Below, one piece after another: positions 32,947-45,567 of a stretch of DNA of 64,000 nucleotides (position 1 is the stretch's first letter; every line of letters begins with the position of its first letter). The notes beneath the pieces were generated by a model. That model saw nothing but the letters and a program-made list of their open reading frames with translations. It was not told the DNA's origin and did no database searches. Made by a program: the position numbers and the translations under genes. Origin of the DNA: Escherichia coli (GTDB taxonomy: Bacteria > Pseudomonadota > Gammaproteobacteria > Enterobacterales > Enterobacteriaceae); NCBI RefSeq assembly GCF_013122565.1, contig NZ_CP053258.1. One strand, given 5' to 3'.

Positions 32947-34638
32947 ATGAAAACGCTGCTGATTATTGACGCTAATCTCGGTCAGGCACGCGCCTATATG
33001 GCGAAGACCCTGCTGGGCGCGGCGGCGCGAAAAGCAAAACTGGAAATCATCGACAATCCGAACGACGCTGAAATGGCGATTGTTCTCGGTGATTCCATCC
33101 CGAACGACAGCGCGCTGAACGGTAAAAATGTCTGGCTGGGCGATATTTCCCGGGCAGTTGCGCACCCTGAGCTGTTCCTGAGCGAAGCCAAAGGCCATGC
33201 GAAACCTTACACTGCGCCGGTCGCTGCGACAGCACCGGTTGCCGCCAGCGGTCCGAAACGCGTAGTTGCGGTGACTGCTTGCCCGACTGGCGTAGCACAC
33301 ACCTTTATGGCGGCTGAAGCCATTGAAACCGAAGCGAAAAAACGTGGCTGGTGGGTGAAAGTTGAAACCCGTGGTTCTGTTGGCGCGGGTAATGCAATCA
33401 CTCCAGAAGAAGTAGCCGCAGCGGATCTGGTGATTGTGGCGGCAGATATCGAAGTGGATCTGGCGAAATTTGCTGGTAAACCGATGTATCGTACCTCTAC
33501 CGGTCTGGCGCTGAAGAAAACCGCGCAGGAACTGGATAAAGCGGTTGCTGAAGCAACGCCGTATGAACCGGCGGGCAAAGCTCAAACGGCGACCTCTGAA
33601 GGTAAGAAAGAGAGTGCAGGCGCATACCGTCACTTGCTGACGGGCGTCTCTTACATGCTGCCGATGGTCGTTGCAGGTGGTCTGTGTATCGCGCTTTCTT
33701 TTGCTTTTGGTATCGAAGCGTTTAAAGAGCCGGGTACGTTGGCAGCGGCGCTGATGCAGATTGGTGGTGGTTCAGCCTTTGCGCTGATGGTGCCGGTACT
33801 GGCAGGTTACATTGCCTTCTCCATTGCCGATCGTCCGGGTCTCACGCCGGGTCTGATTGGCGGTATGCTGGCGGTCAGCACCGGTTCTGGCTTCATTGGC
33901 GGTATTATTGCGGGCTTCCTGGCTGGTTACATTGCGAAGTTAATCAGTACGCAACTGAAACTGCCACAGAGTATGGAGGCGCTGAAACCGATCCTGATCA
34001 TTCCGCTAATTTCCAGTCTGGTGGTCGGTCTGGCGATGATCTACCTGATCGGTAAACCGGTTGCTGGCATTCTCGAAGGGTTGACTCACTGGCTGCAGAC
34101 CATGGGGACTGCGAATGCGGTTCTGCTGGGGGCGATCCTCGGTGGCATGATGTGTACTGACATGGGCGGTCCGGTAAATAAAGCAGCGTACGCATTCGGT
34201 GTGGGTCTGCTGAGTACTCAAACCTATGGCCCGATGGCGGCGATTATGGCGGCAGGTATGGTGCCACCGCTGGCAATGGGTCTGGCAACAATGGTGGCGC
34301 GTCGCAAATTTGACAAAGCGCAGCAGGAAGGTGGCAAAGCCGCTCTGGTTCTTGGTCTGTGCTTTATTTCGGAAGGTGCAATTCCGTTTGCTGCTCGTGA
34401 TCCGATGCGTGTGCTGCCGTGCTGTATCGTGGGTGGGGCGCTGACTGGCGCAATCTCAATGGCGATTGGTGCGAAACTGATGGCACCGCACGGTGGTCTG
34501 TTTGTTCTACTGATCCCTGGCGCTATTACGCCTGTATTGGGTTACCTGGTAGCAATTATTGCCGGTACGCTGGTGGCGGGTTTGGCCTATGCCTTCCTGA
34601 AACGTCCGGAAGTGGACGCAGTAGCGAAAGCAGCGTAA
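32947..34638 (+). CDS. fruA: Fructose PTS permease IIB'BC component
   Basis: 563-aa ORF with duplicated IIB domains (CPTGVAHT) and an IIC membrane domain. Confidence 0.9.
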   Translation: MKTLLIIDANLGQARAYMAKTLLGAAARKAKLEIIDNPNDAEMAIVLGDSIPNDSALNGKNVWLGDISRAVAHPELFLSEAKGHAKPYTAPVAATAPVAASGPKRVVAVTACPTGVAHTFMAAEAIETEAKKRGWWVKVETRGSVGAGNAITPEEVAAADLVIVAADIEVDLAKFAGKPMYRTSTGLALKKTAQELDKAVAEATPYEPAGKAQTATSEGKKESAGAYRHLLTGVSYMLPMVVAGGLCIALSFAFGIEAFKEPGTLAAALMQIGGGSAFALMVPVLAGYIAFSIADRPGLTPGLIGGMLAVSTGSGFIGGIIAGFLAGYIAKLISTQLKLPQSMEALKPILIIPLISSLVVGLAMIYLIGKPVAGILEGLTHWLQTMGTANAVLLGAILGGMMCTDMGGPVNKAAYAFGVGLLSTQTYGPMAAIMAAGMVPPLAMGLATMVARRKFDKAQQEGGKAALVLGLCFISEGAIPFAARDPMRVLPCCIVGGALTGAISMAIGAKLMAPHGGLFVLLIPGAITPVLGYLVAIIAGTLVAGLAYAFLKRPEVDAVAKAA

Positions 34639-34649
34639 TAAAAGGTGTG

Positions 34650-34680
34650 TTACAGGGCAGAAATTTCCTGCCCTGTATCA
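34650..34680 (+). terminator. Putative terminator downstream of fruA
   Basis: Hairpin acagggcag-aaatttc-ctgccctgt immediately after the fruA stop; weak T-tract. Confidence 0.45.
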
Positions 34681-34946
34681 TTGGATGAGCGCAAAGGGAA
34701 TGACCGGCTTATGAATGTAATTTTATGAATTTAAATGGTTTTATCTTTCAGTAGAAACCTGAAACGTTCATCAAACACTAAGGTTATTTCCTCAAGGGCA
34801 GATTATTTTCTGCCCTTTTTTATTGTTCCTGTTCTGTGCATCCCGTCACAAATTCCTCGCTTTTGTAATTCAGGCATTTAATCGCATTTTGTGAGCCTGC
34901 TCAAATCTGCCCATTTTGCCTCTCTGGCGGTAATTTACTTTACGTA

Positions 34947-34994
34947 AAACATGCATACTATGAGCACATGTTTAAATATGAACACATGTTTAAA
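34947..34994. promoter_or_regulatory. Repeat-containing putative operator in the psuK promoter region
   Basis: Two direct copies of CACATGTTTAAA (34965-34976 and 34983-34994) plus an inverted half-site AAACATG (34947-34953), 70-115 bp upstream of psuK. Confidence 0.4.
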
Positions 34995-35061: not shown

Positions 35062-36003
35062 ATGCGCGAAAAGGATTATGTCGTAATTATAGGTTCGGCG
35101 AATATTGATGTCGCCGGATATTCACATGAATCATTAAATTATGCGGATTCAAATCCAGGTAAAATAAAATTTACGCCTGGTGGAGTCGGGCGCAATATTG
35201 CACAAAACCTGGCGTTGCTGGGGAATAAAGCCTGGCTACTTAGCGCAGTAGGCAGTGATTTTTATGGTCAATCGTTGCTAACGCAAACCAATCAATCTGG
35301 TGTTTATGTCGATAAATGCCTGATTGTGCCGGGAGAAAATACGTCGAGCTATTTATCATTACTCGATAATACCGGTGAAATGCTGGTTGCTATAAATGAC
35401 ATGAATATTAGCAACGCTATTACAGCTGAATATCTCGCACAGCACCGTGAATTTATTCAGAGGGCAAAGGTCATTGTCGCGGACTGTAATATCAGTGAAG
35501 AGGCACTGGCATGGATTCTGGATAATGCCGCCAACGTACCCGTATTTGTCGATCCTGTTTCCGCGTGGAAATGTGTCAAAGTGCGCGACCGTCTAAATCA
35601 GATCCACACTCTCAAACCAAACCGCCTTGAAGCGGAAACCCTGAGTGGGATTGCGCTGTCAGGGCGTGCAGATGTGGCAAAAGTTGCTGCCTGGTTCCAT
35701 CAACATGGCCTGAACCGACTGGTATTGAGCATGGGCGGCGACGGCGTTTATTACAGCGATATCAGCGGTGAAAGTGGCTGGTCTGCGCCGATCAAAACCA
35801 ATGTCATTAATGTTACCGGAGCGGGCGATGCCATGATGGCGGGGCTTGCTTCGTGTTGGGTAGACGGAATGCCGTTTGCCGAATCTGTTCGTTTCGCACA
35901 GGGATGTTCGTCAATGGCGCTCTCCTGTGAATACACCAATAACCCCGATTTATCGATTGCCAACGTTATATCGTTAGTGGAGAACGCAGAATGTCTGAAT
36001 TAA
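35062..36003 (+). CDS. psuK: Pseudouridine kinase (PfkB family)
   Basis: 313-aa ribokinase-like ORF (…TGAGDAMMAGL…); overlaps psuG by 13 nt. Confidence 0.85.
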   Translation: MREKDYVVIIGSANIDVAGYSHESLNYADSNPGKIKFTPGGVGRNIAQNLALLGNKAWLLSAVGSDFYGQSLLTQTNQSGVYVDKCLIVPGENTSSYLSLLDNTGEMLVAINDMNISNAITAEYLAQHREFIQRAKVIVADCNISEEALAWILDNAANVPVFVDPVSAWKCVKVRDRLNQIHTLKPNRLEAETLSGIALSGRADVAKVAAWFHQHGLNRLVLSMGGDGVYYSDISGESGWSAPIKTNVINVTGAGDAMMAGLASCWVDGMPFAESVRFAQGCSSMALSCEYTNNPDLSIANVISLVENAECLN

Positions 36004-36929
36004 AAATTTCCCCTGAATTATTACAAATTTCCCCGGAAGTGCAGGACGCTTTAAAAAACAAAAAACCGGTTGTGGCGCTGGAATCGACCATTATTTCTCA
36101 CGGGATGCCGTTCCCACAAAATGCCCAGACCGCAATTGAAGTTGAAGAAACTATTCGTAAACAGGGCGCAGTACCTGCCACTATCGCCATTATTGGTGGC
36201 GTGATGAAAGTGGGTTTAAGCAAAGAAGAAATTGAATTACTGGGTCGTGAAGGGCATAACGTGACTAAAGTTAGTCGTCGCGATTTACCTTTTGTCGTTG
36301 CCGCCGGAAAAAATGGCGCAACCACCGTGGCTTCAACGATGATTATTGCGGCGCTTGCCGGAATTAAAGTATTTGCCACCGGCGGAATTGGTGGTGTTCA
36401 TCGCGGGGCGGAACATACCTTCGATATTTCTGCCGATTTGCAAGAACTGGCAAATACTAATGTCACCGTTGTTTGTGCCGGGGCGAAATCTATTCTCGAT
36501 TTAGGCTTAACTACCGAATATTTAGAAACTTTCGGTGTACCGCTAATTGGCTATCAGACCAAAGCGTTGCCTGCGTTTTTCTGCCGCACCAGCCCGTTTG
36601 ACGTCAGCATTCGTCTCGACAGCGCCAGTGAAATTGCCCGTGCAATGGCGGTGAAATGGCAAAGCGGGCTGAACGGTGGCCTCGTGGTAGCGAACCCGAT
36701 CCCGGAACAGTTTGCGATGCCGGAACAGACCATTAACGCTGCGATTGATCAGGCAGTGGCAGAAGCCGAAGAACAGGGAGTCATTGGTAAAGAAAGTACG
36801 CCATTCCTGCTGGCGCGCGTTGCTGAGCTGACCGGCGGTGACAGCCTGAAATCCAACATCCAGCTGGTGTTCAACAACGCCATTCTGGCGAGCGAAATTG
36901 CCAAAGAATATCAGCGTCTCGCGGGTTAA
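35991..36929 (+). CDS. psuG: Pseudouridine-5'-phosphate glycosidase
   Basis: 312-aa ORF of the IndA/PsuG family; conserved position. Confidence 0.85.
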   Translation: MSELKISPELLQISPEVQDALKNKKPVVALESTIISHGMPFPQNAQTAIEVEETIRKQGAVPATIAIIGGVMKVGLSKEEIELLGREGHNVTKVSRRDLPFVVAAGKNGATTVASTMIIAALAGIKVFATGGIGGVHRGAEHTFDISADLQELANTNVTVVCAGAKSILDLGLTTEYLETFGVPLIGYQTKALPAFFCRTSPFDVSIRLDSASEIARAMAVKWQSGLNGGLVVANPIPEQFAMPEQTINAAIDQAVAEAEEQGVIGKESTPFLLARVAELTGGDSLKSNIQLVFNNAILASEIAKEYQRLAG

Positions 36930-37022
36930 TTTCTGACGGGCAGAAAGCCGTCGCCCGTACTCATCAAGCATACCAAAACCTGGCGCTGACGCCGGGTTTA
37001 CTGGCATGAAGGGAAAATCATT

Positions 37023-38273
37023 ATGGATATAATGAGAAGTGTTGTGGGGATGGTGGTGTTACTGGCAATAGCATTTCTGTTGTCAGTGAATAAAAAGAGC
37101 ATCAGTTTGCGCACGGTTGGAGCCGCACTGCTGCTGCAAATCGCTATTGGTGGCATCATGCTCTACTTCCCACCGGGAAAATGGGCAGTAGAACAGGCGG
37201 CATTAGGCGTTCATAAAGTGATGTCTTACAGTGATGCCGGTAGCGCCTTTATTTTTGGTTCGCTGGTTGGGCCGAAAATGGATGTCCTGTTTGACGGTGC
37301 GGGTTTTATCTTCGCCTTTCGCGTACTTCCGGCGATTATCTTCGTCACTGCGCTCATTAGTCTGCTGTACTACATTGGCGTGATGGGGCTGCTGATTCGC
37401 ATCCTTGGCAGCATTTTCCAGAAAGCCCTCAACATCAGCAAAATCGAATCTTTTGTCGCAGTCACCACTATTTTCCTCGGGCAAAATGAGATCCCGGCGA
37501 TCGTTAAACCGTTTATCGATCGCATGAATCGCAACGAGTTGTTTACCGCAATTTGTAGCGGGATGGCGTCCATTGCTGGTTCGATGATGATTGGTTATGC
37601 CGGAATGGGCGTACCAATTGACTACCTGTTAGCGGCATCGCTGATGGCGATCCCCGGCGGTATTTTGTTTGCACGTATTCTTAGCCCGGCAACCGAGCCT
37701 TCGCAGGTCACATTTGAAAATCTGTCGTTCAGCGAAACGCCGCCAAAAAGCTTTATCGAAGCGGCGGCGAGCGGTGCGATGACCGGGCTGAAAATCGCCG
37801 CTGGTGTGGCGACGGTGGTCATGGCGTTTGTCGCAATTATTGCGCTGATCAACGGCATTATCGGCGGAATTGGCGGCTGGTTTGGTTTTGCCAATGCCTC
37901 TCTGGAAAGTATTTTTGGCTATGTGCTGGCACCGCTGGCGTGGATCATGGGTGTGGACTGGAGTGATGCCAATCTTGCGGGTAGCCTGATTGGGCAGAAA
38001 CTGGCGATTAACGAATTCGTCGCTTACCTGAGTTTCTCCCCATACCTGCAAACGGGCGGCACGCTGGAAGTGAAAACCATTGCGATTATCTCCTTTGCGC
38101 TTTGTGGTTTTGCTAACTTTGGTTCTATCGGTGTTGTCGTTGGCGCATTTTCGGCTATTTCGCCAAAACGTGCTCCGGAAATCGCTCAGCTTGGTTTACG
38201 GGCGCTGGCAGCAGCAACGCTTTCCAACCTGATGAGCGCGACTATTGCCGGGTTCTTTATTGGTTTAGCTTGA
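37023..38273 (+). CDS. psuT: NupC-family (CNT) nucleoside transporter PsuT (YeiM)
   Basis: 416-aa polytopic membrane protein; about 90% identical to the nupX product in this window. Confidence 0.85.
   Translation: MDIMRSVVGMVVLLAIAFLLSVNKKSISLRTVGAALLLQIAIGGIMLYFPPGKWAVEQAALGVHKVMSYSDAGSAFIFGSLVGPKMDVLFDGAGFIFAFRVLPAIIFVTALISLLYYIGVMGLLIRILGSIFQKALNISKIESFVAVTTIFLGQNEIPAIVKPFIDRMNRNELFTAICSGMASIAGSMMIGYAGMGVPIDYLLAASLMAIPGGILFARILSPATEPSQVTFENLSFSETPPKSFIEAAASGAMTGLKIAAGVATVVMAFVAIIALINGIIGGIGGWFGFANASLESIFGYVLAPLAWIMGVDWSDANLAGSLIGQKLAINEFVAYLSFSPYLQTGGTLEVKTIAIISFALCGFANFGSIGVVVGAFSAISPKRAPEIAQLGLRALAAATLSNLMSATIAGFFIGLA
37023..38273 (+). repeat. Dispersed duplication, copy A (psuT coding region; leader motif at 36933-36956)
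   Basis: Near-identical at the protein level (about 90%) to copy B, with shared 5'-leader motifs. Confidence 0.7.
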
Positions 38274-38340: not shown

Positions 38341-39000
38341 TTACTGCATCATCCCGGAGAATTTATTCTCCGGGTCCATCTCCAGCGCCAGTCCTGACAA
38401 CTGCTTTCTGTTTTTAATTAGATATCCTTTCTTGCTTTTAATTAATAAACCGTCGTGAATGAATTGTGCGAGAACATATAAAAGATGTCGATAAGAAACG
38501 CCTAAATACTCTGCCGCTTGCGTATGCTTTTCGTGATAAAGATCACCTTCTTGTGAGAGTAATATAAATGCTGCCAGGCGATTCACTAACGGAAATGATT
38601 GATTCTGAGTTAAAGAAACAATATTACGATAATTTTTATGACTTAAGGTGACGCAAAGTTTTCGTAAAAATAGGGTGTCGTTTAATAACAGCGGACGGTA
38701 ATGTTTCATAGGGAGCGCAAGGCACCAACACTCTTCAATAGCCTGTACCGCACGCGGTTCATGGTCTTTATCGATTAACTCAATCTCACCAATAAAACAG
38801 GGGGCGGCAAAGAAATCGATCAGCGACACGCGACCATTAGCTAGCGTGGCGTAAAGCCTGGCGCGGCCTCGCGTCAGGTAAAACAGCCAGGACGGCTGTT
38901 GCCCTTCCTGCACAATGTAGTCACGCGCTAAAAAATGAAACAGCCGCGTATCGGCTGAAACATCCGTTAAAAAGCAATCCTTAAACGCGGATTCACTCAT
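38341..39000 (-). CDS. yeiL: CRP/FNR-family transcriptional regulator YeiL
   Basis: cNMP-binding-like domain plus C-terminal HTH; start trimmed to [10 protein letters not shown]… (219 aa). Confidence 0.8.
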
Positions 39001-39168
39001 CAATTGCTGCTTAAGATCATTATTGTGGATTTCTTTCACGATGTTTATCCGCTATGAGATTTCTCATATTTAGCATACGTACGCTGTTGTTAAGATTCAA
39101 TCATCGGCCCGATCGAAATTTCTTTGCTGTAGAAAAAATAACGCAACTGGAAACAGAGGAAATAAACA

Positions 39169-40110
39169 ATGGAAAAGAGAAAAATTATTCTGGATTGTGA
39201 TCCGGGTCATGATGATGCTATTGCTATAATGATGGCGGCGAAACATCCGGCAATAGATTTATTAGGCATCACTATTGTAGCGGGTAATCAGACGCTTGAT
39301 AAAACATTAATTAATGGCCTGAATGTTTGCCAGAAACTGGAGATTAATGTTCCGGTTTATGCGGGGATGCCACAACCCATTATGCGGCAACAAATCGTTG
39401 CCGATAATATTCACGGTGATACCGGACTGGATGGCCCGGTATTCGAGCCGCTGACCCGCCAGGCAGAAAGCACTCATGCGGTGAAATACATCATTGATAC
39501 CCTGATGGCAAGCGATGGCGATATCACTCTGGTGCCGGTTGGTCCGCTTTCAAATATCGCGGTGGCAATGCGTATGCAACCCGCGATCCTGCCCAAAATC
39601 CGTGAAATTGTGCTAATGGGCGGCGCTTACGGTACAGGCAACTTCACGCCATCTGCCGAGTTCAACATCTTTGCTGACCCGGAAGCCGCACGCGTGGTGT
39701 TCACCTCCGGCGTTCCATTAGTGATGATGGGCCTCGATCTTACCAACCAGACCGTTTGCACCCCGGACGTGATTGCACGAATGGAAAGGGCAGGCGGCCC
39801 TGCCGGAGAGCTGTTCAGCGACATCATGAACTTCACTCTCAAAACCCAGTTCGAAAACTACGGCCTGGCTGGCGGCCCGGTGCACGACGCCACCTGCATC
39901 GGTTATCTGATTAACCCTGATGGCATTAAAACCCAGGAGATGTACGTCGAAGTGGACGTCAACAGTGGCCCTTGCTATGGGCGTACCGTCTGCGACGAGC
40001 TGGGCGTTCTTGGCAAGCCCGCTAATACCAAAGTCGGCATCACTATTGATACCGACTGGTTCTGGGGCTTAGTCGAAGAGTGCGTGCGCGGCTACATCAA
40101 AACCCATTAA
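39169..40110 (+). CDS. rihB: Pyrimidine-specific ribonucleoside hydrolase RihB (YeiK)
   Basis: 313-aa ORF with N-terminal DxDxxxDD nucleoside-hydrolase motif (DCDPGHDDA). Confidence 0.9.
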
Positions 40111-40209: not shown

Positions 40210-41460
40210 ATGGATGTCATGAGAAGTGTTCTGGGAATGGTGGTATTGCTGACGATTGCGTTTTTACTGTCAGTAAACAAGAAGAAGATCAGCCTGCGTA
40301 CCGTTGGCGCGGCGTTAGTGTTACAGGTCGTGATTGGCGGCATTATGCTTTGGTTACCGCCAGGGCGTTGGGTCGCTGAAAAAGTCGCTTTTGGCGTGCA
40401 TAAAGTGATGGCGTACAGCGACGCGGGTAGCGCATTTATCTTCGGTTCTCTGGTCGGACCGAAAATGGACACCTTATTTGATGGCGCAGGATTTATCTTT
40501 GGTTTCAGGGTGTTACCGGCAATTATCTTCGTCACCGCGCTGGTGAGTATTCTCTACTACATCGGTGTGATGGGGATCTTAATTCGCATTCTCGGCGGTA
40601 TCTTCCAGAAAGCATTAAATATCAGCAAGATCGAGTCATTCGTCGCGGTCACTACCATTTTCCTCGGGCAAAACGAAATTCCGGCGATCGTCAAACCCTT
40701 TATCGATCGTCTGAATCGCAATGAATTATTTACAGCGATTTGTAGTGGCATGGCCTCGATTGCTGGTTCGACAATGATTGGTTACGCCGCGCTGGGCGTG
40801 CCTGTGGAATATCTGCTGGCGGCATCATTAATGGCGATCCCTGGCGGGATCTTGTTTGCCCGCCTGTTAAGCCCGGCAACGGAATCTTCGCAGGTTTCCT
40901 TTAATAACCTCTCTTTCACCGAAACACCGCCAAAAAGCATTATTGAAGCCGCTGCGACAGGGGCAATGACCGGGCTGAAAATCGCCGCAGGTGTGGCGAC
41001 AGTAGTGATGGCATTTGTCGCCATCATTGCGTTAATTAACGGTATTATCGGCGGCGTTGGCGGCTGGTTTGATTTTGAACATGCCTCGCTGGAATCCATT
41101 TTAGGTTACCTGCTGGCCCTACTGGCGTGGGTGATGGGTGTTGACTGGAGTGATGCGAATCTTGCCGGGAGTTTGATTGGTCAGAAACTGGCAATAAATG
41201 AATTTGTCGCTTATCTCAATTTCTCACCCTATCTGCAAACAGCTGGCACTCTCGATGTTAAAACTGTGGCGATTATTTCCTTCGCGTTGTGCGGTTTCGC
41301 TAACTTTGGTTCTATCGGGGTAGTGGTGGGGGCGTTTTCTGCGGTTGCGCCACACCGCGCGCCGGAAATCGCCCAGCTTGGTTTACGTGCGCTGGCGGCG
41401 GCGACACTTTCTAACCTGATGAGCGCTACCATTGCCGGATTCTTTATTGGTTTAGCGTAG
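40210..41460 (+). CDS. nupX: NupC-family (CNT) nucleoside transporter NupX (YeiJ)
   Basis: 416-aa paralog of psuT (about 90% aa identity by eye). Confidence 0.85.
   Translation: MDVMRSVLGMVVLLTIAFLLSVNKKKISLRTVGAALVLQVVIGGIMLWLPPGRWVAEKVAFGVHKVMAYSDAGSAFIFGSLVGPKMDTLFDGAGFIFGFRVLPAIIFVTALVSILYYIGVMGILIRILGGIFQKALNISKIESFVAVTTIFLGQNEIPAIVKPFIDRLNRNELFTAICSGMASIAGSTMIGYAALGVPVEYLLAASLMAIPGGILFARLLSPATESSQVSFNNLSFTETPPKSIIEAAATGAMTGLKIAAGVATVVMAFVAIIALINGIIGGVGGWFDFEHASLESILGYLLALLAWVMGVDWSDANLAGSLIGQKLAINEFVAYLNFSPYLQTAGTLDVKTVAIISFALCGFANFGSIGVVVGAFSAVAPHRAPEIAQLGLRALAAATLSNLMSATIAGFFIGLA
40210..41460 (+). repeat. Dispersed duplication, copy B (nupX coding region; leader motif at 40161-40184)
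   Basis: Paralogous to copy A; shared leader motif ctgaSgggcagaaagccgtcgccc and a conserved ribosome-binding region. Confidence 0.7.
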
Positions 41461-41474
41461 CGCGCAATTTATGA

Positions 41475-41508
41475 GCCGGATAAGATGCGGTCAAGCGTCG
41501 AATCCGGC
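41475..41508. repeat. REP-like palindromic element
   Basis: GCCGGATAAG…AATCCGGC palindrome between nupX and yeiI. Confidence 0.5.
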
Positions 41509-41515
41509 AACATTG

Positions 41516-42604
41516 TTACACCATTGGCACTAATGAAAGCGCGTTATCGGCAGACAGGGTAGGGTTGTTTAAGCTGCCGCTGGCGCGTGAAATTGCCGCG
41601 CAGGCCATCGCAAAACGGGCGCTGTCACGGAAATTGTTTCCCTCCAGAAAGCTATATACCAGGCCCGCCATAAAACCATCGTCAGCACCAAAACTGTCTA
41701 CTGTCGTATGCGCTGGTGCGGTCAGCAAAAATTGTTCTCCATCCTTTTCGCTGCAATAAACTGACTCATCGGGCAAATAAACAAACAGTTGCTGAACACC
41801 TTGCTGATGCAACGCATTCACTGCGGCATTACGGTCAACATCGCTGGTGATCGCCTGTCCCCATAAAATTTCCAGCTCCGGTAAAGTGGGTTTCAGGGTA
41901 TGAATATGCGCCAGCCAGTGTTTGATTTTGCCCGCTTTGAATTCTGAAACGGTATCGACAAACACCGGGATCTCATCAGCGAGGGTAAAGACCCATTCCA
42001 GCGCCTCGGCTGTCAGGTTGCAATCAGCCAGTACCACGCCCGCATGACGAAGTAAATCGCGCGACCCGTTCAGTAGTTGCGGTGTCAACTGTTCCAGCAG
42101 ATGGGTATCGTTAATCGCCAGCACGGTTTGATCGTCTCGATTGGCAATTGCCAGATACGTCGATGTGCTTTGACCATGCAAACGAACGCAGCCGGAGACA
42201 TTCACGCCGGCACGGCGCGTTTCTTCCAGGAGCATTTCGCCATAAAAGTCATCGCCAATCACTGAAAGCAAATGGACGTCGCGGCCTAACAGCGCCAGAT
42301 TGTGGGCGATATTGCGTCCAACGCCGCCCGCCGAGCAATGAATTGTACCGGGATGAGAAGCCGCTTGCGGGTAACGGATATCCGCCATCCCGCGAATATC
42401 CATATTGATTGTCCCCACCACTACGCAGTATTCCTGCTCGGTGAGAATGTAACCTTTGCCTTTAATCCGGCCTTTGCGCATTAAATCCATAATATGCGCC
42501 GCAACGCGCGAACGACTGATTTGCAGCATGTCCGCAATTTCGTTCTGCTGAATCAGCGGGTTACGCCGTAAAATTGCAAGGATCTCCTTTTCCCGGTTAT
42601 TCAT
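41516..42604 (-). CDS. yeiI: PfkB-family sugar/nucleoside kinase with N-terminal HTH domain (YeiI)
   Basis: 362-aa ORF; N-terminal winged-helix (…QNEIADMLQISRSRVAAHI…) fused to a ribokinase-like domain; paralog of psuK. Confidence 0.85.
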   Translation of the reverse strand: MNNREKEILAILRRNPLIQQNEIADMLQISRSRVAAHIMDLMRKGRIKGKGYILTEQEYCVVVGTINMDIRGMADIRYPQAASHPGTIHCSAGGVGRNIAHNLALLGRDVHLLSVIGDDFYGEMLLEETRRAGVNVSGCVRLHGQSTSTYLAIANRDDQTVLAINDTHLLEQLTPQLLNGSRDLLRHAGVVLADCNLTAEALEWVFTLADEIPVFVDTVSEFKAGKIKHWLAHIHTLKPTLPELEILWGQAITSDVDRNAAVNALHQQGVQQLFVYLPDESVYCSEKDGEQFLLTAPAHTTVDSFGADDGFMAGLVYSFLEGNNFRDSARFAMACAAISRASGSLNNPTLSADNALSLVPMV

Positions 42605-42606
42605 CT

Positions 42607-43464
42607 TCAGGCTACCGCTTTTTCAGTTTGTTGCGCTTTCAGCCAGGCGATCTCTTCTGCCCAGATATCCGGGTTGATGGTTTCAAGGATCAGCGGAATG
42701 CCGTCGAAACGGTCATCCTGCATGATCCAGCGGAACGCATCATGACCGATATTGCCTTCACCGAGGCTATGATGGCGGTCAACGCGGCTGCCAAAGGTGC
42801 TTTTCGCATCGTTAAGGTGCATCCCGCGCAGATACTTAAAGCCGACAATACGGGCAAAATCAGCGAACGTTTTCTCGCATTCGGCTGGAGTACGCAAATC
42901 ATACCCGGCAGCGAAAGCATGGCAGGTATCAATGCAGACGCCGACACGGGATTTATCTTCCACGCCGTCGATAATTGCCGCGAGATGTTCGAATTTAAAC
43001 CCTAAGTTACTACCCTGACCGGCGGTGTTTTCAATCACCGCGGTCACACCTTGAGTTTTATCCAGCGCAATGTTGATGGATTCGGCAATACGCGCAAGGC
43101 AATCCTCTTCTGAAATCTGCATCAGATGGCTGCCAGGGTGGAAGTTGAGCAAAGAAAGCTCCAGCTGTTCGCAACGCTGCATTTCATCTATAAAGGCATC
43201 GCGCGATTTTTCCAGAGCTTCAGTGACCGGATGTCCGAGGTTAATCAGATAGCTGTCGTGGGGAAGAATTTGCGCCGATGTGTAGTGATATTTTTCACAG
43301 GCGGCTTTGAATTCATCGATGGTTTGCGTCGTGAGCGGTGCGGCACGCCACTGACGTTGGTTTTTGGTGAACAAGGCAAACGCGGTTGCGTCGATTTCGG
43401 CGGCGCGAATTGCGGCATTTGCCAGACCGCCAGCAGCACTAACGTGCGCTCCAATGTATTTCAT
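42607..43464 (-). CDS. nfo: Endonuclease IV (AP endonuclease)
   Basis: 285-aa [42 protein letters not shown]…; TIM-barrel AP endonuclease family 2. Confidence 0.9.
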
Positions 43465-43537
43465 GCGAGGACTCCTGTTAAACCCGCTGGAGGAAAACGG
43501 TAATGATAGCGGGTTAACAGGAGCAAGATGTAGTGGT

Positions 43538-44685: not shown

Positions 44686-45567
44686 ATGCACATCACCCTC
44701 CGGCAGTTGGAAGTTTTTGCAGAAGTATTGAAAAGTGGATCAACCACCCAGGCGTCGGTGATGCTGGCGTTGTCGCAATCAGCAGTGAGCGCAGCCTTGA
44801 CCGACCTGGAAGGGCAGCTTGGCGTTCAACTGTTTGATCGCGTGGGGAAAAGACTGGTTGTTAATGAACACGGGCGGCTGCTCTATCCGCGTGCGTTGGC
44901 ACTGCTTGAACAGGCGGTTGAAATCGAACAACTGTTTCGTGAAGACAACGGCGCGATTCGTATCTATGCCAGTAGTACCATCGGTAACTACATTCTGCCT
45001 GCAGTCATTGCCCGTTATCGCCATGATTATCCGCAGTTGCCGATTGAACTTAGCGTTGGGAACAGCCAGGACGTGATGCAAGCGGTACTGGATTTCCGCG
45101 TTGATATTGGCTTTATTGAAGGACCGTGCCACAGCACTGAAATCATTTCTGAACCGTGGCTGGAAGACGAGCTGGTGGTTTTCGCCGCGCCGACTTCGCC
45201 GTTGGCCCGTGGTCCGGTCACCTTAGAACAGCTGGCCGCTGCGCCGTGGATCCTGCGTGAACGCGGTTCCGGCACGCGAGAGATTGTCGATTATCTGTTG
45301 CTGTCACATTTACCGAAGTTTGAGATGGCGATGGAATTAGGTAACTCCGAGGCAATCAAACATGCGGTGCGTCATGGGTTGGGAATTAGTTGCCTGTCGC
45401 GACGGGTGATTGAAGATCAATTGCAGGCAGGCACATTAAGTGAAGTTGCGGTCCCTCTGCCGCGCCTGATGCGTACGTTGTGGCGTATACATCATCGGCA
45501 AAAACACCTTTCCAACGCGCTACGGCGCTTCCTGGACTATTGCGATCCCGCGAATGTCCCGCGTTAA
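44686..45567 (+). CDS. yeiE: LysR-family transcriptional regulator YeiE
   Basis: 293-aa ORF; N-terminal HTH ([24 protein letters not shown]…) and LysR substrate-binding domain. Confidence 0.85.

Follow-up and report, generated by a model that had tools for sequence, protein, structure and literature searches.

What does a protein do that carries a DNA-binding domain at its N-terminus and a kinase-like domain behind it, and that is encoded beside nucleoside genes? This question is raised by yeiI in a 64,000-nt stretch of the Escherichia coli genome (contig NZ_CP053258.1 of assembly GCF_013122565.1), which was analysed at its full length and is referred to here as the window. A first-pass annotation of the window had proposed that the gene product, YeiI, might be a bifunctional regulator-enzyme controlling the neighbouring rihB-nupX or psuKGT genes in response to its own substrate. 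From a comparison of YeiI and its locus with those of its relatives, we predict that YeiI is a trans-acting, nucleoside-sensing transcriptional repressor of the psuK-psuG-psuT (psuKGT) operon, a reading that we hold with somewhat better than even confidence. The gene and its two domains are located as follows.

41516..42604, minus strand: yeiI coding sequence, 362 aa (open reading frame list and translation; NCBIfam PRK09954; E. coli annotation)
42440..42604, minus strand: N-terminal winged helix-turn-helix (HTH) domain, residues 1-55 (Pfam HTH_24 and AlphaFold2 (AF2) model)
41561..42433, minus strand: PfkB-fold, pseudouridine-kinase-like domain, residues 58-348, the proposed ligand sensor (Pfam PfkB)

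The locus is named yeiI in 5420 of 5426 complete E. coli genomes, and its product is a member of the NCBIfam YeiI equivalog (NF007416 / PRK09954), which it matched with 812.3 bits over residues 1-362 (cut-off 561). The second NCBIfam model to match, that of pseudouridine kinase, gave 256.6 bits against a cut-off of 540. Pfam placed HTH_24 on residues 1-48 (E = 1.2e-10; 41.2 bits, gathering cut-off 21.9) and PfkB (PF00294) on residues 58-348 (E = 4.5e-67), and no ROK family appeared among the Pfam matches at E values up to 0.01. In the AF2 model, which has an overall predicted local distance difference test score (pLDDT) of 90.9, the HTH domain comprises helices at residues 2-13, 19-26 and 30-42 and a wing, with block-mean pLDDT values of 77-94 over residues 1-60. 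The HTH-kinase fusion noticed at this position in the first-pass annotation was thus confirmed as a 362-aa reading frame on the minus strand with both Pfam domains, and so was its winged-helix start of about 55 aa, the peptide quoted there being the first 54 residues of YeiI. When solved structures were searched with the YeiI fold, every match covered the kinase part only and no HTH-PfkB protein was among them. A sequence search of solved structures with the HTH domain returned weak, non-specific matches of the GerE or Lrp-like kind (best E = 0.04), from which no subfamily was identified.

The HTH-kinase architecture of YeiI is already annotated and is not new. The paper on the structure of EcPUKI, the E. 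coli pseudouridine kinase PsuK, placed YeiI beside PsuK in a tree and called its function unknown (PMC9061257), and YeiI has been listed among hypothetical transcription factors (PMC6055005). A 2025 critique of machine-learning annotation rejected the label 'pseudouridine kinase' for YeiI, since PsuK has that role (PMC12506659). According to the same source a psuK mutant is unable to use pseudouridine, indicating that YeiI is no substitute for PsuK. In the literature searched we found no functional study of YeiI, no regulator of psuKGT and no work on HTH-PsuK fusions. A paper on LeuO names 'YdcI and YeiI' as LysR-type regulators characterised by chromatin immunoprecipitation with exonuclease digestion (ChIP-exo) (PMC6698644); this 'YeiI' was most probably written in error for YeiE, which is encoded nearby (44686-45567) and belongs to the LysR family by Pfam.

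The relatives of YeiI were collected by searching 1.84 billion cluster representatives (50%-identity clusters), 733 of which matched at E <= 1e-30. An N-terminal domain of ~55 aa was present in 112 of the 142 closest full-length representatives. A scan of one genome per species yielded 79 loci, in which psuG neighbours were called by tblastn. Outside Enterobacteriaceae, psuG came immediately after the fusion, in the same orientation, in 68 of 72 loci, and two of the four exceptions were contig ends. This order was found in Gilliamella, Hafnia, Serratia, Photorhabdus, Aquitalea, Vogesella, Shewanella, Aeromonas and Vibrio, and also in many Clostridia and Oscillospiraceae, Spirochaetaceae, Lutibacter and Alkaliphilus; the called-gene tables of Serratia, Xenorhabdus and Aquitalea gave it as well, with the two genes overlapping by 4 nt. 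Because 68 of 72 loci run from the fusion into psuG, the HTH fusion is, judged by gene order, the ordinary form of the bacterial pseudouridine kinase. Such proteins are annotated 'PfkB family carbohydrate kinase / winged helix-turn-helix transcriptional regulator'. Their HTH domain is conserved across phyla (REKEIL..NP.ISQ.E.A..LGISRS.VA.HI.NL.KKG.I.GKGYIL), and that of YeiI conforms to the family pattern (REKEIL...ISRS.VA.HI..L..KG.I.GKGYIL). Compared with fusions of other orders and phyla, YeiI is 50-72% identical in the HTH domain, more than in the kinase part (33-49%).

The kinase motifs of the HTH fusions fall into two classes that split by identity to YeiI, canonical at 54% or less and YeiI-type at 56% or more. 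YeiI-type proteins were found in Escherichia, Salmonella, Citrobacter, Enterobacter, Klebsiella-like genomes, Leclercia, Pseudocitrobacter, Affinibrenneria and others. YeiI itself departs from the HTH-PsuK family in that its gene is not the first of a psuG operon and has no double palindrome upstream of its own start codon.

Such a palindrome lies upstream of E. coli psuK, as a tandem 18-nt repeat, TATGA(G/A)CACATGTTTAAA, and similar AAACA-NN-TGTTT dyads precede psuK or HTH-psuK in Klebsiella-like genomes, Enterobacter, Affinibrenneria, Xenorhabdus and Aquitalea. Exact copies of AACANNTGTT numbered three in the window against 1.4 expected, which is not significant by itself, and a cross-species test was therefore used instead. 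Across 75 fusion loci, matches to AAACANNTGTTT with at most two mismatches occurred at 5.84/kb in the 300 bp upstream versus 0.55/kb elsewhere in the loci, and a site of this type was present in 64 of the 75. The usual form is two copies spaced 18-19 bp centre to centre, the last one ending 13-60 bp before the start codon. We also made an unbiased count, over 73 upstream regions from genomes other than the YeiI-type ones, of all palindromes with half-sites of 4-5 nt and gaps of 0-8. AAAC-N4-GTTT topped this count, with 23 loci observed versus 0.33 expected, and AAACA-N2-TGTTT was found in 10 loci versus 0.01 expected.

In the raw upstream sequences, the sites follow the -10 box and precede the ribosome-binding site or ATG. 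The layout in Clostridia is TTGACA-N17-TATAAT followed by site 1 and by a site 2 that runs into a GGAGG ribosome-binding site; in Serratia, Hafnia and Photorhabdus it is CTTTACT-N17-TAAAAC followed by AAACnCATGTTT-AAAAAC-AAACAAGTGTCC-AAT-ATG. Because the sites cover the +1 position and the 5′ untranslated region (UTR), the HTH-PsuK fusions are predicted to be autorepressors. To judge from these comparisons, the canonical fusions are almost certainly both kinases and repressors.

In the window, the corresponding elements are these.

35062..38273, plus strand: psuK-psuG-psuT operon, the proposed target
34934..34961, plus strand: candidate psuK promoter, -35 TTTACT, 16-nt spacer, -10 TACTAT, inferred from the sequence
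34962..34973, no strand assigned: predicted operator site 1, GAGCAcaTGTTT, in the psuK promoter; second-best matrix match in the window
34980..34991, no strand assigned: predicted operator site 2, GAACAcaTGTTT, 18 bp from site 1; best matrix match in the window

The matrix was built from the upstream sites of non-Enterobacteriaceae HTH-psuK genes only and was scanned over the whole 64-kb window. Its two top scores, at 34976 (16.7 bits) and 34958 (13.2 bits), both fell in the psuK promoter, and paired matches of at least 13 bits at 17-20 bp appeared in none of 300 first-order Markov simulations of the window. The candidate promoter is directly upstream of sites 1 and 2, with a -35 element like that of the Serratia-type CTTTACT promoter. 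Among the other YeiI-type genomes, the top match of the whole 9-21-kb locus was located 47-261 bp upstream of the HTH-less psuK in 8 of 9, often accompanied by a second match at a distance of 18 bp; the remaining genome, that of an E. asburiae strain, showed the same layout with GAGCA/GAACA half-sites (GAGCAcgTGTTC and GAACAtgTGCTC). The YeiI-type gene was convergent to an HTH-less psuK-psuG-psuT operon in 11 of 11 genomes. In these genomes PsuK is without an HTH and the family's HTH (50-72% identity) is found on YeiI, which makes YeiI the obvious candidate for the trans-acting partner of the psuK sites. Recognition-helix and half-site variants co-vary, a pattern that is confounded by phylogeny and was not used as evidence.

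A repeat finder and the matrix scan detected no operator-like sites before rihB (39040-39168), nupX or nfo/yeiI. We dropped rihB-nupX as a target on this ground, so that, of the two alternatives put forward in the first-pass annotation, psuKGT was retained by virtue of the double palindrome in the psuK promoter and rihB-nupX was not.

The kinase-like domain was examined by comparing residues in 44 YeiI-type and 49 canonical proteins, using EcPsuK numbering. The AF2 model of YeiI superposes on E. coli pseudouridine kinase (7vtd) with a template-modelling (TM) score of 0.97 and a root-mean-square deviation of 1.4 Å, and on that account its fold is taken to be intact; the model matches ribokinases as well. 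Structural work on PsuK has established S30, N143 and K170 as the pseudouridine hallmarks, D256 as the catalytic base and K185 as a residue near the γ-phosphate (PMC9061257). This triad corresponds to S83, N196 and K223 of YeiI and is kept in 43-44 of the 44 YeiI-type proteins, as is the entire nucleoside pocket (N14, D16, S30, Y97, N112, N143 and K170; 43-49 of 49 canonical). Residues D164, K185, E190 and D256 are also kept (42-44 of 44 YeiI-type; 43-49 of 49 canonical), and the N-terminal GG motif of the PfkB family is present and conserved in YeiI (AGGVGRNIA). D29 and M114, conserved at 98-100% elsewhere, are A/S and T, respectively, in YeiI-type proteins.

In contrast, the ATP site was rewritten. 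Canonical proteins (Yersinia, Serratia, Xenorhabdus, Photorhabdus, Pasteurella, Aquitalea and others) have the motifs NRLE, NVTGAGD and DSNPG, as in PsuK, versus TxxE, DSFGADD and A/S-S-x-PG in the YeiI-type. N187 of the NXXE motif, G228 and G255 are each present in 49 of 49 canonical and 0 of 44 YeiI-type proteins, G255 being replaced by Asp in all 44; S223 (47 of 49 canonical) and G225 (37 of 49) are likewise found in none of the 44. Roles for these positions are given in the literature: G225-x-x-G228 is a conserved small ATP-binding loop, density attributed to Mg was reported near N187, E190, D164 and D256, presumed Mg sites (PMC9247573), and in PfkB proteins generally the anion hole is formed by the GXGD stretch (PMC10339645). 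The replacements in YeiI, confirmed at the codon level, are encoded as follows.

41885..41887, minus strand: codon T240, which replaces the NXXE Asn (EcPsuK N187); the YeiI motif is TLPE, and the Glu is kept in 42 of 44
41762..41773, minus strand: codons P278-D-E-S281, which replace the GXXG small ATP-binding loop (EcPsuK G225-G228)
41681..41683, minus strand: codon D308, which replaces the anion-hole Gly of GAGD (EcPsuK G255); the YeiI motif is GADD

The catalytic-base Asp309, directly after D308, is kept, and the catalytic Asp is found in 43 of 44 YeiI-type proteins. Some members have lost more, having ARQD or SLDT in place of NXXE or GADE in place of GAGD. The altered state of the ATP site is itself conserved among YeiI-type proteins. 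The PfkB domain with GADD-type motifs that the first-pass annotation had described as complete is thus complete as a fold; its active site is not the canonical one, the family motif being GAGD. Because three PfkB catalytic motifs are altered in YeiI and its score is below the cut-off of the PsuK equivalog, the label of pseudouridine kinase should not be given to it, and the residue comparison indicates that it is probably a poor or inactive kinase.

Between Enterobacteriaceae, the ratio of non-synonymous to synonymous substitution (dN/dS) was 0.00-0.06 for the HTH domain of yeiI, 0.02-0.10 for its kinase-like domain and 0.03-0.12 for psuK, values that are rough because dS is saturated in many pairs, the dN values being comparable in themselves. 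The low dN/dS in both yeiI domains indicates that both are functional, and the idea that yeiI is a decaying pseudogene was rejected on the same values.

A neighbour-joining tree of the kinase domains, built without support values, placed the HTH-less PsuK among Enterobacterales HTH-PsuK proteins and YeiI in a long-stemmed sister clade, with matching topologies in the PsuK and YeiI paralog subtrees. Serratia-type fusions are 59-60% identical to E. coli PsuK and ~48% identical to the kinase-like domain of YeiI. The simplest history compatible with these sequences would be a duplication, after which one copy lost its HTH and the ATP site of the other was remodelled. The ancestor, as the distribution of the fusions suggests, would have been a single HTH-PsuK that served both as pseudouridine kinase and as autorepressor of an HTH-psuK-psuG operon, binding two AAACA-NN-TGTTT palindromes that lay downstream of the -10 box and ahead of the start codon. 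To judge from the tree and the order of the genes, HTH-psuK would have been duplicated, and its jobs split, in the lineage to Enterobacteriaceae and some relatives. PsuK (YeiC), the operon copy, would have lost the HTH and retained the enzyme role, and the YeiI copy would have retained the HTH and the pseudouridine pocket while its site for ATP and phosphoryl transfer was rewritten.

Other HTH-PfkB proteins were seen away from psuG. Xenorhabdus ehlersii (L026) and X. mauleonii (L028) have, besides the psuG-linked copy, extra HTH-PfkB paralogs with no psuG next to them, one of them with a GSGD motif. Degenerate HTH-PfkB proteins with the motifs GAAS, GTSG and GAED are encoded at 180-1292 of locus L089, 3325-4452 of L090 and 7001-8086 of L091; one is the first gene of an operon with a nucleoside hydrolase, another lies behind ABC-transporter permeases and the third is on its own. 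These cases suggest that the HTH-PfkB architecture has been recruited repeatedly as a dedicated regulator. The three degenerate proteins are compatible with a regulator role and are not independent proof of a split like that between YeiI and PsuK. A degenerate GXGD motif was found in ~14 of 112 HTH-fused and 0 of 30 HTH-less relatives, a marginal difference (Fisher p = 0.04) that includes some truncated proteins.

How might YeiI act at psuKGT? In the mechanism that we propose, YeiI dimers would occupy both palindromes (34962-34991), which follow closely on the psuK -10 box, and prevent transcription. The kinase-like cleft would take up pseudouridine or a close analogue, and this would trigger a Ser30-dependent closure of the β-clasp dimer, as demonstrated for PsuK, where pseudouridine shortens the distance between the Ser200 residues from 66 to 51 Å (PMC9061257). 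This closure would shift both N-terminal HTH domains and release the DNA. The response to 'its own substrate' envisaged in the first-pass annotation is better read as a response to a ligand. In its strongest form, our reading would make YeiI a true pseudokinase, derived from a duplicated and subfunctionalised HTH-PsuK, that binds pseudouridine without consuming it and thereby de-represses psuKGT; we put this form at slightly below an even chance. Our confidence is higher for YeiI as a regulator of psuKGT and lower both for its being catalytically dead and for pseudouridine being the ligand.

Several points weigh against this reading, the roughness of the dN/dS values being one. Single matches of at least 16.7 bits occurred in 9% of the simulations, so that the best match alone is not significant in 64 kb; what carries the argument is that the sites are paired, where they lie and that they are conserved. 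The candidate psuK promoter is a weak consensus match (8/12). The operator pattern was first noticed partly in E. coli, a circularity that the unbiased palindrome count lessens, not wholly. The retention of D256, K185, D164 and E190 means that YeiI may have residual or altered kinase activity, and the changes at D29, M114 and L25, in or near the nucleoside pocket, mean that its ligand may be an analogue rather than pseudouridine itself.

The retained residues lead to the question of whether YeiI could be truly bifunctional, an active nucleoside kinase and at the same time a substrate-responsive regulator of the neighbouring nucleoside genes, like BirA or NadR. The canonical HTH-PsuK fusions almost certainly work in this way, YeiI has the full fold with the catalytic Asp, K185, D164 and E190, the purifying selection on its kinase-like domain is as strong as that on PsuK, and the change at NXXE may be tolerated, N-to-S having been found in 2 of 30 HTH-less relatives. 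However, N187, G228 and G255 separate the two classes completely, the exchange of the anion-hole Gly puts an acidic side chain beside the γ-phosphate site, and some YeiI-type members have also lost E190 (ARQD, SLDT) or the catalytic Asp (GADE). Beside YeiI there is always a dedicated PsuK, and rihB-nupX has no operator-like site. We consider bifunctionality unlikely for these reasons: the regulator half of the first-pass proposal holds by comparison, and the enzyme half is doubtful, given the lost ATP-site residues and the PsuK already present. YeiI might instead be a sugar or nucleoside kinase, as the annotation 'sugar kinase' has it, whose HTH is vestigial or serves a role other than DNA binding. 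The names in NCBI and UniProt and the weak similarity of the HTH to solved DNA-binding domains (best E = 0.04) speak for this; against it, the HTH is the most conserved part of YeiI, with the lowest dN/dS and near-invariant positions across phyla, its HTH_24 match is above threshold and its winged helix is modelled confidently, and the ATP site is non-canonical. We regard a vestigial HTH as very improbable.

A further alternative is that YeiI binds DNA elsewhere, at nfo/yeiI, at rihB-nupX or at distant loci, and that another factor occupies the psuK palindromes. The pairing of YeiI with the operator was drawn from comparison, the matrix scan covered the 64-kb window, and yeiI is co-oriented with nfo, an oxidative-stress repair gene, all of which leave some room for this view. 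Nevertheless, HTH-PsuK is the only regulator consistently encoded with the sites in the fused systems, its HTH is 50-72% identical to that of YeiI, and the sites, with their 18-bp spacing, are retained in exactly those genomes in which YeiI has taken over the HTH. Most of these genomes have no YeiL, and no good site was found near nfo, rihB or nupX. A different target is, in our estimate, improbable. The paired palindromes might also act in RNA, as a 5′-UTR hairpin through which translation or termination of psuK or HTH-psuK is controlled; in Aquitalea the two together make up a perfect inverted repeat of 13 nt that ends at the start codon, and in many loci they are within the likely 5′ UTR. 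In most taxa, however, central and outer bases differ between the two sites, each of which is palindromic in itself, and the two are not mutually complementary. What is conserved is the 12-bp dyad and its centre-to-centre spacing of 18-19 bp, which is typical of dimeric HTH proteins, and the sites co-occur with the HTH protein across phyla. We give a hairpin very little credence.

The remaining genes around yeiI are located as follows.

35062-36003, plus strand: psuK (NCBIfam pseudouridine kinase, 714 bits)
35991-36929, plus strand: psuG (Pfam Indigoidine_A)
37023-38273, plus strand: psuT (Pfam Nucleos_tra2_N / Gate / Nucleos_tra2_C; NCBIfam TIGR00804, concentrative nucleoside transporter (CNT) of the NupC/NupG family)
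38341-39039, minus strand: yeiL
39169-40110, plus strand: rihB
40210-41460, plus strand: nupX
42607-43464, minus strand: nfo, directly upstream of yeiI on the same strand

NupX and PsuT share 88% identity over 416 aa, a sign of recent duplication, and the kinase part of YeiI is 40% identical to PsuK; the duplicated nucleoside genes that the first-pass annotation had reported nearby are thus real. The yeiL-rihB-nupX block lies between psuT and yeiI in E. coli and the Klebsiella-like contig and is missing from E. albertii, Citrobacter, Enterobacter and Leclercia, in which psuT directly abuts yeiI. Being absent from most YeiI-containing genera, the block is not a conserved partner of yeiI. The nfo stop codon and the yeiI ATG are separated by 2 nt, and the order nfo-yeiI is kept in Escherichia, Citrobacter, Enterobacter, Leclercia and the Klebsiella-like contig, not in Affinibrenneria, where the gene upstream of yeiI is not nfo and yet the psuKGT linkage holds. 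Genomic systematic evolution of ligands by exponential enrichment (SELEX) placed an RpoD peak between nfo and yeiI (PMC3946193), and on this basis yeiI is probably expressed from the nfo transcript, from a constitutive promoter in the 3′ part of nfo, or from both.

Several other sequence elements were noted. The 55 bp separating the convergent genes nupX and yeiI (41461-41515) are taken up by a repetitive extragenic palindromic (REP)-like palindrome (GCCGGATAAGATGCGGTCAAGCGTCGAATCCGGC), which may be a bidirectional transcript end. An inverted repeat, CTCCTGTTAAACC / GGGTTAACAGGAG, with 13-nt arms 26 nt apart (43472-43484 / 43511-43523), is located in the yeiH-nfo spacer just upstream of nfo. 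Ahead of the psuK promoter, two G+C-rich hairpins in tandem (34648-34680 and ~34786-34822, the second with a T-run) follow a putative fruA (32947-34638) and look like two successive terminators. A CRP-like TGTGA-N6-TCAAA is found at 34890-34905, ~70 bp upstream of the inferred psuK transcription start, and a similar TGTGAttctgtTCATA is present in the psuK upstream regions of Enterobacter and Klebsiella-like genomes. The spacer of the candidate psuK promoter contains a weaker third dyad-like element, TAAAACATGCA (34941-34955), one repeat unit upstream of sites 1 and 2.

YeiI is a remaining y-gene of E. coli K-12, and the assignment proposed here comes with a promoter as target, a 12-bp dyad, a probable inducer and key residues. 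If YeiI is a true pseudokinase, it would be the first bacterial one-component transcription factor with a PfkB (ribokinase-like) effector domain and a natural pseudouridine-responsive genetic switch. Breitman is said to have described, in 1970, pseudouridine-utilising mutants of pyrimidine auxotrophs with elevated enzyme levels, a phenotype that could be accounted for by loss of a repressor. PsuK and YeiI would form a natural case of subfunctionalisation, one paralog without the DNA-binding domain and the other without the canonical catalytic motifs, and HTH-PsuK proteins would constitute a large unrecognised class of enzyme-repressor fusions with a conserved operator, ranging from Proteobacteria to Clostridia and Bacteroidota. 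A pseudouridine-responsive pair of repressor and operator could serve as a biosensor in strain engineering; pseudouridine is in demand for mRNA therapeutics (PMC10552469), and PsuK also binds N1-methyl-pseudouridine (PMC9247573).

Among known systems, PsuK/YeiC (EcPUKI; PDB 7VTD, 7VVA, 7VKP) is nearest in structure. YeiI has the same PfkB fold at 38-40% identity and shares the nucleoside-pocket residues and the catalytic Asp, and the β-clasp dimer of PsuK with its pseudouridine-induced closure (PMC9061257) offers YeiI a ready route of signal transmission. Unlike PsuK, YeiI has an N-terminal HTH, lacks the NXXE Asn, the GXXG loop and the anion-hole Gly, is changed at D29 and M114, and is encoded by a separate gene outside the psuG operon. 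With the HTH-PsuK fusions (e.g. Serratia, Photorhabdus, Shewanella, Aeromonas and Oscillospiraceae), YeiI has in common the two-domain layout and an operator dyad tied to psu genes. These fusions keep all canonical kinase motifs, head the psuG operon and have the operator before their own gene, whereas the motifs of YeiI are altered and its proposed operator sits before the HTH-less psuK.

The closest mechanistic analogy is provided by the ROK repressors Mlc and NagC, in which an N-terminal HTH is joined to a sugar-kinase fold that acts as a sensor and oligomerisation domain, with degenerate ATP motifs and with kinase paralogs that have no HTH. YeiI likewise combines an HTH with a degenerate sugar-kinase fold, but the resemblance is functional only: ROK proteins have the actin-like ATPase fold and YeiI the PfkB/ribokinase-like one, and the ligands and operators differ. 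BirA and NadR carry an N-terminal HTH joined to an enzyme of the regulated pathway and have kept catalysis, the corepressor of BirA being its own reaction intermediate. The canonical HTH-PsuK fusions probably behave like these two proteins, whereas YeiI appears to have separated sensing from catalysis. The plant fructokinase-like proteins FLN1 and FLN2 have a PfkB fold with degenerate kinase motifs and are subunits of the plastid RNA polymerase complex, with no HTH and no response to a ligand. YeiI resembles them as a PfkB fold with degenerate motifs and, on our proposal, in a transcriptional role, and would differ from them in being a one-component regulator.

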